Positions 61,201 through 64,000 of a DNA stretch of 64,000 nucleotides are shown in pieces. Made by a program: the position numbers and the translations under genes. The stretch comes from Promethearchaeota archaeon (GTDB taxonomy: Archaea > Asgardarchaeota > Lokiarchaeia > Sigyniarchaeales > SOKP01). Below the pieces are notes generated by a model, which was not told where the DNA came from, made no database searches, and was given only the letters and a program-made list of their open reading frames with translations. Positions within the stretch are counted from its first letter, which is position 1. Every line of letters starts with the position of its first letter. Location of the stretch: assembly GCA_048940605.1 (NCBI GenBank), contig JBHLOJ010000002.1, positions 17,742-81,741 on the forward strand, written 5' to 3'.

Positions 61201-64000
61201 TTCACTGTTTATAACAATGTCTCTCAATACACCCACACTTTTAACATAGGCAATCATTCTTTCGAAACAGATTTTGTAAATTTAAGCATATATAAGGTAA
61301 TAGGGTTAACACCAACCTTAGAGTCTGAAGTATTGACAAATAACATTAACTTCACAGTCGGATTTAATAAAACAACAAAAACTTTGAATATTACTGATCA
61401 AAATGGCTATTTAAATCGTTTTGATACGATTACTGCGATTTTGAATTACTCGTATGGTCCAATTTCCAGCTATACTGAAATTTATTTCTTAGACCAATTT
61501 AATCAGACATATTTAGCTGATCCAAAAGAAACATTCTATAATTATATAAATATAGATTATCGGTATAGAGCAGAGTCAGGAACAGCCTTATTTGCCGAAA
61601 GTTCTGAAGTAATTACAAGTGATTTTTCCTCGTTTACATCGATTGACTATTGTCGAAATCCAGATATTAGCACTAATAATAAATTGACTGGGTATGGTTC
61701 AGAATTATTTGATAATTTCGAGGTATATTATGATGAAAGCTCCATTATTTACATGGCAGATCCTGATATGAATAGAGAGCCAGATTATAAACTTACAATC
61801 GATGTTGAAAGAGACGGAAAAATTGATATTATCAAGTATGGTATTGATGATCCACAGGGGTCAGGAGAAATTTATTGGCATACCATTATCCAAGATTTTG
61901 AGAGTACAGAAATTAGCATACAAGAAGATTTGCTAGATGAAAAAAGAACCCAATGGTTTGATATAGATGATAGAGAATTTGCTTACTATGAATTTGATGT
62001 GGCTAAATTAATTTTAATTGTACTTACATTACCGTTGTTAACATATCATATTTCCAAGATGATACTTCCTGATGTGGATTATTGGGCGCAAAAGTCCACG
62101 CAGCAAAAAGTAAATACAGAAGAATATATAAAATCCAGCTTTTATAGCGTAAAAGTCGATGATAATCGTGATGGGATTCCTGATTCCCAGATTAATTATG
62201 AAAGCACAAAGGTAGATATTTATTATGAAATAAATGAATTTAAGAAGACAATTATTGCCGCAAAATATCAGGATATATTTACCTATCTAGCAGAATATAT
62301 TGAAAAAAGCATCAGTTCCCTTTTTGGTGGTTCTACTGAGGATGCTGTATTTAATGAACAGCTAACAGAAAAGTATCTTGATTCTCAAGACTTTAGTACA
62401 TGCAACCGATATACTCGAGAAAATGCTGATGTACTACGTGCGACTTATAGAAAATTCACTCAAAACATTACGACTACCTATATTGACAACTTCGAACATT
62501 CAACTATATCGATAATTGACTTTGATGATGAGGGAGAGATTGAAGAGCAGAGAATTTATACAGATGATTTTGAGAATCATGAAATTGATAATGTAGAACG
62601 CTTCTTCTCTACGCTCTCTGAGGAACATTCAATAACTAATCTGGATACTGATCAAATAAATACAGTAGTTTTTGATCCTGAACTACCCTTTTCTCATCCC
62701 ACAAACATTAGTTGGAATACTAGAACATGGGGTTCCGATCAAGTACCAATAAAATATGATTCTCTACAAGTTTCTGGTGAAGGTTATGATTATATAACAA
62801 ATGTGTTTGAGACAACTATCATTATTAGAATGCCAAATCGTTATTCTTTGTATAATGATTTTGGTAGAAATTCTAGGTCTAGTGTTGTTGATGACGGGTG
62901 GGTTGAATTTGAAGTAGAAGGGGTGTTAGTTACTCCTCCAGACGGTCAAGTATATTATACCTCTGATATAGAATCTTTCATCGAAGGAACAGCCAAGACT
63001 TATGGGCACTACTTCTATGTAGATACTGATCAAAATAGTTTCTATGATACTGTTTATGTTTTAGAGAATTCGCGTTCTCATTCAGGAATACCGAAATACA
63101 ATGTAATTACAATTGGATATAATTATGATGGCAAGCACGATTTTGCTCCCTATGAAAAAATAGAGAAGCGAGCACATACAATTTCTGACTTCGATAACTT
63201 AGCGAGAGAATCCACCATGTTTGGATCTGATTGGGTATATAATTTCAATAAACTTAGAAATTGTGATCTTTTATGGGAAGATGAGTCTATTTGGGATGAA
63301 TATAAACCGAAAGATCAGCTATTTGAAATTCATAAGCTTGTAGAAAAAAGTAGTAAAAATGATGATTTTTCAGAATTATTTTATGAAATTAGACATAAGA
63401 CATATTCAGAAGCGTGGAGGCAATATAGAAGTCAGTTATTAGGTGATATTGCCCAGCAAGTCTTTATGACGACAACCGCTACAACCATTAGTATGACGGT
63501 TGAGGCTATTTTAACAGCAGCTACTTTAGGATATGGATACGCGGCAGCAAAAGCAGTAGCCACATTGACCTATGTAACAGTTTACACCTTAATGACTAAA
63601 TTCTTTATTGATATAGAACTTCATGAAGCAGAATCTAGGACTCGTTTTGAGACATTTTATCCTACTTCAAATGAGATACAAAAACCTATATCTTTAAACG
63701 AGAAAATGGTGTATGATAGAGTTTTAGGAGATAGTATGGCGGCTGCTCTCATTGGACACCCCGGTGGATATTATACCACAGTAAGTGGTGATGAACCAGG
63801 AGATCAATATACGGGACAACTTTTAGTCAGCCCTCCAAATCCTGCACGAAGTTTGAATATTTTTGGTGGATTATTAGAGGTAATATGGGAAAACCTCTGG
63901 GATATGGGTGAATCAGATCCAGATTCATTTTATGCTCTAGATTTTGATGATATGAATTTGGATTATTTCTTGCTAGCAAGTGAATTACCTTCCTATAATT
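31300..64000 (+). CDS. Giant membrane-anchored surface protein. The 5' end is complete; the 3' end is cut by the window edge (at least 10,900 codons).
   Basis: ATG 31300 directly follows an in-frame TAA (31294-31296). Every 60-nt listing line starts on a codon boundary of this frame. I read triplets on more than 20 lines spread over 31.3-64.0 kb, including 34441, 36361, 39961, 43141, 47041, 50041, 53401, 56401, 60001, 62041 and 63961, and found only sense codons. The ORF track lists no + ORF in this frame, and nothing longer than 84 aa in the other five frames across 33 kb. Edge-truncated ORFs are evidently omitted from the track. The translation is protein-like throughout. Confidence 0.9.
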   Translation, partial: MSKSTKTKKEYERELSKMIRSPSVDTSFEKVKINYSLDNYNLTTLDNEIDQIRSSGLKQTQVSAKYTQKSIEKVDKTDEITKHQDLPKDHLPSLQLFKNKEIKITEKKEPQGKYQYYFSFIILALIFSAPSILSFLILFYLNNPLQESLYVLIPLYLFLSVFCAFKGAYYYFNIIKKQRRLKLESRRSKPKFQEVFSRLSLKDSTLKVITVSFSFLLFFCGYMNILFFSNTKGDILLLILLEITYYVIFTINHNIMKDNGRSLQQLFIAASVAGTFLGALILFAVNNLKPLLVVFPVVIFVSYLVYKNILVKTIVFLCCITGLGFFSLFIYNIVSTYLVDVFTTKFPFKAPIFLGGFNNTVLFILTFFIGLIVIYLMVRKKFIQVLQFLPLVGLLGSIWIYYHNFSSNRLPEDVSALFLLIPIIFYSLFLVFIFKNRILDLFAQFFMLISSLSLPIILAILALQENYGDAQFLIPFWTIVFSILAVLFAPLYEVKPRRSSTQKQNGIYGLKYHEIKFPLLWTFTLGLTVSLCYVFIMIPQWQFIPVLGIICSILLFTIKAKSIKVKVIKLLQKRKYKLYNIKNKSTVKTPYFEDKHVRIALLMIIFLNLYSLIFSVNSLASVSSPNFEFARVPQENGLNLASINYGSLEYSSSLNDFDGMSINDKFIIKCKVSLDFGETSLVRVRIIPQDVPSIEGFRILKSYEISSKYLTGPKKDYEIITQIPLNKFDLAPGTYKVEVYYSVLTGFGCRSSSPQIYELILVRDNLYVIPTEPFNEPIEDGFHYNSVYTFEYEINGKLCWNVIFDGRIQNSAQRTVSLDNLELFIEENDRYVNIANISTDSRGRFYYNHTVFGSIEKNQMVKIESSCKSEFYNPLFYEEFGGLETPISDERVFRDEDMNLYPDWDYTLYDFIKVLTSSSEGAPPSSLAFMAEFSESEGSTTTDIINNLEGTIEGNTTWTTAGKRDSALSFDGDGIVSSSGGGSSVSNWHAESDSEQSITSSSYVEKHTLDFIAPAEGDYLIIVSCEVTPAVTEYSIGVRAQLDDTTTMMEALYEGVNSNRDYEYKCESTMYVAESLGSGSHSIDIDAKQEGGTGYIRYARIVVLRLDDWLDSSGMYEYAANEGAISLAGSEGSYSDAVSITFTPDTAGDYLVLASMEMYCGYAGDTICGRIDYDSGAEYLPVDNTEESYENYVTYESKDTTDWHSFMWGGIVNMPTSSKTFKVQACRTGGSNGNADVRKRRVIAIRLGAMGDDTQSTEDASNTPTTSQWADKSTIQFTPSSQQDYFIIGGMVIKPDSTSYPSHAEVTHTVGTSTGTISVMNVDSKDSGNPADCIPMMGIAIKELNAESQTFKTRYGYAGSSGTTYGKGSFIIAVPLGSGGENGSTYEDFDYVDWNDVLDDDLDNVFVITSWIYPTSFTSNESDNGVKNVFFSKEGIIELGVNETGFVEIFLSTNSVETTASYGFPGAVALHTWNYLVLRFNDSGNDVDVLIGDTWCREAIGATAEPWGGGGALKEGGKLIIGAEISSYRSFTGILDDISVFNSSISDAAIKSHAGGPFLAIDVTVYKEDNQVGWTPITVSGQTINGYLNFQCNSTGKPIDLLEFYLTGEQPDLQNPTPEEWNLLTSYNYHDELYSFVEESNNLPDNSSWYFIAKATDDLGNFVYDYYSTYFKIDHFDELINFTYIDKEGRINHNSQIGLNIDHDYQWHFDSLSLFINRSGDIDFLSSYNYTELLSNYWLINLDSISGWIDDNNLTAGNYDINFIVEVNLTYGSEFSSYYVNYTLNNTILDIKGPDMELLTGPTYTFTPEATYDSIESNLLTLAINSTDNDFWYVDVEYKYTTPLTANWIKYGSFMVQNSRADIVLDISELADDNITLQFTGFDHLSNSKVLLNSTYWFIKDFNNHEKFTIEGLSDSLYGLNSNDMLDLELKIVPEDNDIKKVTVSTCYESFSLENISSEQNYIYFTDDGAVDIQFNSTYYDIFGSDFTELDILVALFQETTDNIAVTSKIYRIIVTSKAFLDIIQIADVNVNISGDTNNIWMNTISTATTYNNSHGVPFLSNNNPPVLKVYNSLNEFITSISLSTYLDDQDEEIYNTSDIEISKNKFKIELPQPQSGEVCSIEEVLVNGTSYSFSYYIDIDDNDLFIKLLTSKSLDGTYGSSAPITIKYGISTGVRNSNHFVGSYNFTLLPQDNYTCIAEFYDISSAISTFFISQPLTIDYQGPQIHPQFSTNVSINPESGFISFFISDFSGISSYYFNTTISGHWDVIDKIYTFYFNDTSITEGIKNVKLICNDTLGQISEYPFAIFIDKSPPVFSYVQTNYIYGNDLLEINATLTESSEYSITIEFLHLSSDTIAPDFELTIIEIGEDQWHILIDTNWLQNGYYNITLIATDTAGNFNTYVLEDTYFDNSYPIVDLIEEHIYVDNESIFNSTIIETLYFNDHESLTISAFDTLYDGFDWSQIDQTIADQLGIENITMYYTKPLAWCNISIAGSLNYEQFLYEITGYGDSNDVQDIKNIYSITIGNYTIDKFTILLDGTSLLLYIDSQYRYALSSALTGQIYAQFYELVDDEIALQFNNNSKNWELISSGNYFNITEFLSLEEGDQFLFWYEIKDGLDNILISHKITGIFDNSIGQDPIDQNVFEWSLGTNSTGSGIMIFGTEDYLDSTIQLNISSVLPTIAGDIDVERIMIYGSNDTIVWTDIGRAYYSGAENIWNYYWDGDLLETMPSENYTLKVYLFDRAGNYLNQTHTVKLYDYIQIQLITDLVFGHIFEYNSSAFSNENDIEGIIENYIGSINLYDIIAQYYNPIEKEWIKLQTDPATILSDGSYSITWDISDDPSLISSMNNFSYDYLPLQVISPQNNDLWGSWGIFSDADEWQPIIISESGSNLDISVYTFNEVSGWEQDISLSSEVTISSINNQVFKLFDIHRDGKWEIIRISSSQIDVIYLNQTSSQWIIKENVTGLSGYTYYSFDIEYDGRASTTLMSVHQKDSTSQSSMWLYSFNLDYTLTKTKDCICPFNFEPTSIRIVNYFSATDRKAILVAGEISSSHYSQLIEYDFNLGIKNIIVDVILGKISVIEYDEINGAESIVLGVERLIIGKMDAVIALRRKTGTEEWVDFQVSGFDELKFRILDLLTIHENNIRKLIVASGQGLYETKISYFKDLSTISSPICFTTVVYAKQDLQPTYYPLIVPEKIPIYMVNKITYKLSGDNNWYDLNIDKYHSSRTEIRLDLNSIWSSLAYVKVAYSFESFVSEERTSIDPSFKKQSGTSDTQTISASGLFYSDISLPLLWLNPATSYSSPLANWNSLPNSLTYQYTPVISGLGSTAIYPDVKSEWSSEYVIPELENSLICYGDTYDSGILAQNLNAKDDYLGETMFDGSFEGNYVDGVWISNPFISEDFNFSQMYYSEIHEESSQNGLYKYYPGDGQMVLVQNELTDITPYNSSVSLIYDSGVLPSTITPENLNDTLNNIGFDDGNYQYTQVNDSNYLVLSSASGSGGHSYNGEFLLEDGYNGDDFYFSFYSTSTEICYLDINDDTYALATEISIDRQLITNVNSIGFGFGNIYGCSANVYYFKLERISSNTPAVQGASLKEIETVLSNWSQYITTEKEETGVFGFEFTYKLPVISRVSLKEVQVSFDASVYSTSFTEEYPLSLQLWNFEYNRWESLPMAPLDGSSEYRPDGLDMDFWAWHPETPNYNDDKFRPKWGTTNLDNINTISYGDCFPNTVDGDGNIIFDSSVISGASFLKDDDSGHQINTLYTDQDYKVLFYDSDYNANKFQLGSIVLNTISPNTKIGVHFPAYNDSTSFPASSEFYANFLNDLHELRIRVITKRESGQTDDAYLCIGDFNTYAFTNTNYLNYDEFESNAIGTEHVSEKIDFTQNGLGLYGYSGFELKDPERTEKFRDNFQSTLWTLFGTSEEIILFEQVVNDATIVRSLHPSTNYDTEVLSTYKYLSRTNHESDSAFIYSGTLVQGTDVYDTREDDGNNMGIISESFGTYDKRTKVRYDNLVPDRKTFDFYYDISTSALAHISISLGDYDSPVLEIASTTGLQSSLIGSSRIEDKEPNLTYIWIETSSIFYHQVDVDWLESYEVPEEIETFIITEDFSKYLTLGSNDVWELEASRIYGASPTLFLYSTESFDIDTITWEDRPYTRALLSSTFASGSTFTLDLGEIETTEHYFKIDTIHYGIDYSNPKVKYQLAKKHQEPGLLYMQTNESESLSLKSQTYSKNITVTPNDQIIIEFKPKTSNEINFTLYSNGEVVQIFTLVPQGNNDFSSQFITLETDETIQFDQLMFSGMLNDTDYFLVNSISVLEGASIIDTQLSSYDFLEEPHKPYIETGTPLTSSWFGHFKDGQYYNISSNLKSTSQEVCVEFEFNVPKSETLDMEKMGIELTGFASSASLEGATFKIKNLDSSLYENIDFILTDLDSFSFSIPEDQFYKLDNGNYYTISFRIELETSSEFIVHIDNLNIFTYMPWSVEHDLYRASFVIEPVGTGQNQTDYLSVFVNDNINITIYDHLLDFGDNVISFYYNPNEQKWHGYFYNNTYNDFTDLLNITDSEFDIPKLKIEAHYGDTDKGIRVKSLESQYYTQIRDEQDFAKYKSLIASYKAIDNHADLLELDAEDEFLTSENVFTQISADVDIIYSFHDEMAHENIFEYELLPIFTASSYDSLETYIYNETGFIIDSATVLSDSYATDISEGAIATGSLIDLQVDDSSDCIFKTDWTQKRDPDSGDLSVAAGYYGYGVIDSENDDTNWDIQEDDDEERHYQVKTSDLRDEWLIASDEYLFSLGSFSPTNLPADVDVEIKVRWDFWDTYGNDEQEEYSHMRIYIMNWDTSQYEQFGSDIPNSANYIERTIDLNSSDYWQEVVFPNYYYNVKVKIETKAVASPSAPMAQVYIDYLYVDLKGVGRDPDTSYVNFNEFDNTNLLNGQNDFYLYFNGKTNSFTSNLRIDGTVEHTFDSTDYSSFNGYFADIDSIKVFIVGDTEGMDGETYDRRLLIDYLALKWLNQPVNISLKNDKKINVTSSLSHKQQNQTPIDSGLYDDPYFGMNSIHLTLKNTIQTPIFGRGNNTIWADLELSDLDLDFKVYPDTNKPLENNNIEGNDESKYVPAILGNYSEYSTSRFRRSAVDNIQIPLLTPLQLDFGQIDLATYENNILELALDLDIILENRASNSTWSLRSRLLYYNYTSGYWEDFKGMIWMESQGYNRAVWDPETFSDNFIDYLQDFNASNNVIPILNDNDIHVKNPLTINNLNNNIIKDGVMKLAFISYIIPSNISIDPDSNNFVYERMNPEVPIEISQEVGVVDCVFIGNSRQIMYPEASLTANLELDENFRANLSLIDNIGEIVAVKGIFTEDSVNYEYPIYYYWITQENELAFNSPMKYQFTNVSIEYIPQLNLTYNASDGYWYLPDSFVSDEVNYTNPFFVSDLWVNNTYYGTYIHPSINVWYTIDSNDYGTFVDFTNTTHPDSLVKGTIHFGKVDDTTIYRFSIKDETLLRYDILANSSDFVGGTLHLEFNSGFKDVIYSELSQVTCEDYALKISLYELGIDTNELSSIGTLEKALDTNYLGFHYYELDISFDEYDYDLDREADLAEILTQDSSSDLYITLEAVISECYIDGNLFKGMFAHELLYASVEIDSQHSLYHYNEESIEDPYFTIPQNNIILTQVDTSNYIFESKDLKYNYNFEIDNLYAGSEILREHIDYIFDLDQKSITLIGQYKDYNGYLFADIIYNAFEWHEGMISSLNPVTLTFQYDYVKNITKFMELIIQYSEIPGFQYDTIDLNSGRLRLSDETKSSSLLKTYLYNYREDRWDETNFVCYNDYTGTNTFSYIVDRNFLMFENYFNETGTGDFEVKIIFTIECVSEECFLSKGEFSITSIGANMYYSTPKTETKVTPEVIFDVDLTEYYTSSDIYLEEITLNLDYCGELEFDETFIFSQYALLEESYNVYIRNQYFDFEKFSLKNNEITLSREEIDHFIYHDIENSKYIIKIKLEYDWSCILELNVGSKSKLDIIATLTLNKYDLLISYSLYDTTRISACENTVPFELTAIYGPNYIEEGNEIFVLDDDEIPDIGVFGGFLRSTDTKQRLMLRQQLYYNFTESTEGFRNILLDQEYTDANLRFLVPSGYLELPNIREESLLKVPEQSAFNFTSGTLTAFNDLESIDNNYTTIEADYTSGSGSDIVIPNQDITTEWYAVPSGTHYTTIDEYPSKTSSDYVSGGGAPYPLVLDSYEMSNFTLPPGGKITKIEVYIYGNKYYSNDPDIGISWDDGASWPTKKYDADYENGNDFRYDFTGLDKNQTDLNGLAISAEPNPTLYGSPPQWGHFKIYTLWVKVYYNQSYSDLDVQIDMEIDDPLCSSVNTLRYSYKTNVSQVVEMDIWNWDSSQWDEIETTNNNASFDDNSFKLESQYINSTNGVRIRYQAIGASPFELYLDRLAIDYTIQSRFLTNDTYFSLIGEHESKSVKLYYNNGTADNFVANMTLHPSLPCVYEYTWTDISGDTGASTGDIIELMFFITDIFNNNGTYRYNFTADFDLPTPEISLGNGTEDFQTNTATPLTELAFMNHETYPCVEMYRIIDRISGFVTEWFEFDLILIAILGNLSYLSNNFSIEYKVIDIAGNENITSIYNSNFEYILFSKEKPISLSDNNIDLNSLNTIDREITFTDNNQFNHVDYLDAYINGFRYGTAYLDNGFYKLSFGSENSYETLITYSDSLISSNIYSNTNPINHVSWEVRNSDFFGVVKHVLVDEDIIITNPLTYNTDSTLEIDHIYDRGYILQNYARIREAFYYNASSENDDIVYLGLMIDFIVDNAGVIRFPNESRVHDLYNDPSEVKDGLIYFNYDASPFYDQFQLSNADGFFINFTIPDLYYEHTTLKKLTISFHDFTGKTFSKVYWDIDLRKYFLESIKEQYEIEILGLGKMMSIPLYIDLNELAFSNPGTPFDLSLLESIIITISDSELWPGSFKQEVGDYSVLNLPYQRIGISELKLYNLICDSVDVDDQGYVNSTVVFRAPDYYDFFAQAEFKIKRLNIDFTGLEVFYNTQKINMSSATPLEVEYSDYIELNYRFNNTLSSVILNDLITIPISLINASSGEIYSFDGASWITKQNKDSLSGYYSRYYYSKFQVPPGLGIFNVTISSPGTSLFNISFVDATSFTLNITQETLSSEQPIYLEYDTYELEYGESLLLKGAVLDNDEYIVEDRVYIYNYQEALDGNTVYHLDFESPFSDDTFIDLEEFAIYYIANIDNNSDDTLDILPLYSTLNGTYFKEKTILDFNKDPCISYVDNAFLLHIYWDLYSQAFIDYDTELLVSYKVLNGRPISPISFSSLDSYGNDNRDYLVEIPFARYDMLNRSWITKDDFIEEFSIDKKLLYEDVVSDGAVLQGAEYYDGQLIQTGVLSFEGIYVNWSDSNIFELLDESQYNWSINANGELSIADLPYSSGDVFRVIYYGINPITLIHSSNSPVSLISYVRVENGTGFKYNFELGTDYIISADGYRIYFKNLYNTILKSGNFTLYNRFEIKYHAPLARKIDLSQNLLLTLQDSEGNDIPIDTVPIDNIGLFKYNQPLREDGALSVPLGGGKKLVHMCLKYLPSNIFNKSADQLMDIDYNGSNFGKIYPYRENNAWAKPFTIITIPKKVKLEMIEAPYQNILINQKFYEDREYIFNYNLVEALEEGEEYTKVSIDALVREDYQFTFRLTDFEDKPINNSIVWLHIGFMPKSKTEFLNTRAIIDELEISPYFESLGTEQITSRGPGEGPNKMFGRPLIYELNNYNTTNHSAYGPYAFIYGITDEFGEVSFDISFDRDYLEDFVDIFGNIEGINTIEDMILYIRAFSTYFDWDDFAIDTPDQYLCSTDEMVFEGSTKLSNYNFDDLTIQDSTYVEGLIRLHKGDIALGVHDYISYNLPDSTLEDDYDPLTLHLYINEADPIPSTTSTTLDSLTKVYSSLELEGQSYNILSDDYRYYAIIEFYTPSGTLVETMYKEIQEGYDSGFIEISNEYNQLENLLTELGPGISTIKIYVAESEYYKKSPVVIVPCEIRPPNWIKFGEKNTQIDLIDPFISAWGAACNNEVEMPFESNYPHLIGSIWVESDFMGTGEEIERSIQDYIEINLDCTIYNDDGTTSTFPLENDIMLRPGNRDGILTFRIGLGPENAFLMGLQCDLNLSFNIDFNKDKIYEDLRDVEIYLLDLRLESNPSSNNPSTTWSIYEDGVLFSGDITVEKEGAIDEGTGILHLGGTENGQVNGQDLAFLFSNDTLDYGIDANSELLSLLALSEIVALRVVGIKDGDKYEFVQGVDWTMPYYPSGSLYNESIIQFLETNLPDSGSEFSVTYKLKFDFTGKTFGNITLGYSNNYNESSIELKLPQGFLPESNNSHSPMYTRFSESCDGTSTNYIMPYGKQSAVLSDFIVYNEEELEELNYYLGTSLDNDHLKISFSQAPNTEFNVKYGVKSQYILSYGFQKENKSYSDSVRLMYNDSFISKIIDGSNNELSSCDLDDPSLYISLDDSNDTTTLYLSNVPLLYGPELILNFTLDHVVLDLIETFGSDFNNLTIEFKYITNDGFYEFYSDPIVVPLEYAKLSDDIVNNTYSIQYNKDLQAIYDMVGADSVDIEVILHHIGDSSNYIPYIILEVFDYLADEHIVENYDRAPLNRQGKFLAKSAINTPHYYQIFSRPFIDGTLYGDSPFELINGSEVTVGLQNLPNATLVSVNSDGEDYEFGYLGGSETLLVNDTNFYMIPNMGMLIDTYDIEEPLYQDGFLDLYYGSGTQIDGEQQYTATISMDYEAGFIADYRSNINNYRPISWEDTYDFVNQFLTTDKISVSSRVFYHQIFDLDVDINSSSVMNEIFPNYEKNIYFGLQLPEDFDVDEIRAIGLPYHYALSVQGFPIGKYRDNYCEVQTGYSGAFTPSKDILKNNLDFALEFDENGTAYILSFKPTCDLSSYTDYQNKIMVDYWVNCEFVQDYDYYIHEDPEDPYISQIEWDLGFTDEDIYRLHPDFDDEASFTVEYSALEWEIFNEEYIHDGQDLFTFRPLEYYNISILYTGEISTDVFSVQYIVPEDQYLEDHEIFPNLYILAQLGDDESTMRVFGLINTEFTSYLVQNSPNSYNYTMNFTTIENFIKNYDPEYQLVENSYIYALSKYNSSLLRYPLGRTPFNYEYLGDAHDAYQIALYINEQLITYSNESEFHDYVQKIEGRYIYFNNKSQGQSGYIDPNSEIQLKYKFKLQPGLLDRKHFLIVTYPWSNIFDTPYDSIMYRESYRKLTGTIITPFVYSLSIENKYSLYLSYRLNEKDYFEEKFEFDYDNPVYEFYYMEDGIEQYVSELTIDEEDAISVYYFDFLGTMMFLNPSHYIVNTAENKITLKDDYNVIVTPNDITEFYVSFIPENKDRQFTSYEFSYNRTMNITETLNVTHWDILGIESVDVIPNLDAYYFINENKSSLQNIVCHASQVTAYLSEGKELEFNIKAELENYNEDLIDGIHIGDYLAVYFDTNIKNIESLEYLTIKLYDNSGVMSGFTKIITKNELEMYDYNIKIGLPTTSNTLKKVRFTPTFRNDSEYSQDNTFGIGRYQVVECNPELISKRDDGVDCINVELEHDLKTDLDNLAYIFNDRLQLLSFPENITYTRELDICTLHIPTQYYDPDTNETIILQEGQNFVIRYNSPVKKGIALGIGGLYLENKGYNYSSHPDLPKAEFLLIKANSSDSYSEFTSDYYYQESLQLTPFDTEYNGKFKVVKINLNLNSLYQSTGSDVLNFSHLIFSVSNPCYELTINEVLIIEESSEPTVQSGSWDSRVWQFTEVEMFKASASPEEDSYQLTLENSPLFYPNTEWLEYLTIFDEDGNYYTAGLTGNDHQLHYTPSTNSFMWNPSFNQFPEYFGMEFEEPLIVGPNKTLFFEYSTNTSWTEPIRIEEENIDLQSIRVIYDYNYLLKPEHYEWYIEQFNIEHSYESIAYSFKEESEYEVVQYYYESFTVYNNVSQYTHTFNIGNHSFETDFVNLSIYKVIGLTPTLESEVLTNNINFTVGFNKTTKTLNITDQNGYLNRFDTITAILNYSYGPISSYTEIYFLDQFNQTYLADPKETFYNYINIDYRYRAESGTALFAESSEVITSDFSSFTSIDYCRNPDISTNNKLTGYGSELFDNFEVYYDESSIIYMADPDMNREPDYKLTIDVERDGKIDIIKYGIDDPQGSGEIYWHTIIQDFESTEISIQEDLLDEKRTQWFDIDDREFAYYEFDVAKLILIVLTLPLLTYHISKMILPDVDYWAQKSTQQKVNTEEYIKSSFYSVKVDDNRDGIPDSQINYESTKVDIYYEINEFKKTIIAAKYQDIFTYLAEYIEKSISSLFGGSTEDAVFNEQLTEKYLDSQDFSTCNRYTRENADVLRATYRKFTQNITTTYIDNFEHSTISIIDFDDEGEIEEQRIYTDDFENHEIDNVERFFSTLSEEHSITNLDTDQINTVVFDPELPFSHPTNISWNTRTWGSDQVPIKYDSLQVSGEGYDYITNVFETTIIIRMPNRYSLYNDFGRNSRSSVVDDGWVEFEVEGVLVTPPDGQVYYTSDIESFIEGTAKTYGHYFYVDTDQNSFYDTVYVLENSRSHSGIPKYNVITIGYNYDGKHDFAPYEKIEKRAHTISDFDNLARESTMFGSDWVYNFNKLRNCDLLWEDESIWDEYKPKDQLFEIHKLVEKSSKNDDFSELFYEIRHKTYSEAWRQYRSQLLGDIAQQVFMTTTATTISMTVEAILTAATLGYGYAAAKAVATLTYVTVYTLMTKFFIDIELHEAESRTRFETFYPTSNEIQKPISLNEKMVYDRVLGDSMAAALIGHPGGYYTTVSGDEPGDQYTGQLLVSPPNPARSLNIFGGLLEVIWENLWDMGESDPDSFYALDFDDMNLDYFLLASELPSYN
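31651..33150 (+). other. Polytopic membrane domain of the giant ORF (about 14-15 hydrophobic helices), preceded by a ~117-aa Lys/Glu-rich N-terminal tail
   Basis: There are successive 17-24 residue hydrophobic stretches. Examples are FSFIILALIFSAPSILSFLILFYL, LFIAASVAGTFLGALILFAV, VLFILTFFIGLIVIYLMV, LFAQFFMLISSLSLPIILAILAL and VRIALLMIIFLNLYSLIFSV. They are separated by short polar or basic loops. Confidence 0.6.
34100..35960 (+). other. LamG/concanavalin-like (Laminin_G_3 type) domain split by an inserted repeat block
   Basis: The N-terminal strands are NNLEGTIEGNTTWTTAGKRDSALSFDGDG (about 34135-34221). The remainder is FVITSWIYPTSF...HTWNYLVLRFND...LIIGAE...FTGILDDISVFNSSISDAAI (about 35452-35960). 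Together they match the G-x-A-L-x-F-D-G ... W ... FxGxIDDVxIYNxALS layout of Laminin_G_3. About 1.2 kb lies between the two parts. Confidence 0.5.
34255..35430 (+). repeat. Three tandem protein-level repeats (~122-143 aa each) inserted in the LamG domain, bracketed by Gly/Ser linkers
   Basis: The repeats lie at about 34255-34620, 34621-35040 and 35041-35430. Each contains (G/Q)DY(L/F)(I/V)(I/L) and ends with RIVVLRL, RRVIAIRL or SFIIAVPL. Linker SSSGGGSS (34228-34251) precedes the block and GSGGENGS (35428-35451) follows it. GC is higher here: 47% on line 34561 against 30% on line 38401, by hand count. Confidence 0.55.
49861..50640 (+). other. Two-domain block of the giant ORF, collinear with residues ~108-360 of ORF 16351..18618
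   Basis: By-eye alignment, giant ORF first in each pair. TEWYAVPSGTHYTTIDEYP aligns with TQWNNADGPPHWSKLDEFP. FTLPPGGKITKIEVYIY aligns with LSLAPGEYVTKLVYWAY. GLDKNQTDLNGLAISAE aligns with GLSLSQSQLDGFWLQAK. IYTLWVKVYYNQSY aligns with INTVYVKVYVKQQY. After these, MDIWNWDSSQWDEIE aligns with MQIWNYDTTSWNTVE, and LYLDRLAIDYT aligns with LEFDQLYLSYS. Confidence 0.5.
62005..62070 (+). other. Hydrophobic, TM-like segment about 10,235 residues into the giant ORF
   Basis: The sequence VAKLILIVLTLPLLTYHISKMIL is flanked by acidic sequence. Confidence 0.35.
63460..63615 (+). other. Ala/Thr/Val-rich hydrophobic stretch (one or two TM-like helices) about 10,720 residues into the giant ORF
   Basis: The sequence is VFMTTTATTISMTVEAILTAATLGYGYAAAKAVATLTYVTVYTLMTKFFI. 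It is locally GC-richer than its flanks. Confidence 0.35.

Follow-up and report, generated by a model that had tools for sequence, protein, structure and literature searches.

A conserved end-module

Does the giant surface protein of this Asgard archaeon (over 12,000 residues) hold two membrane-spanning segments near the end of the window (the 64,000 nucleotides analysed), as originally suggested? The flagged stretch is the beginning of a conserved end-module.

Table 1. Location of the flagged stretch in the window
Feature	Positions
Flagged stretch	61700-63700

Two hydrophobic segments

For one of the two segments a membrane span was ruled out. The other is a conserved, hydrophobic hairpin of helices, possibly membrane-inserting, and it precedes the swappable, putative toxin tail.

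An exchanged tail and its partner gene

Among relatives, the extreme tail differs by swapping and a partner gene is exchanged along with it, a joint swap that resembles bacterial contact-dependent toxins.

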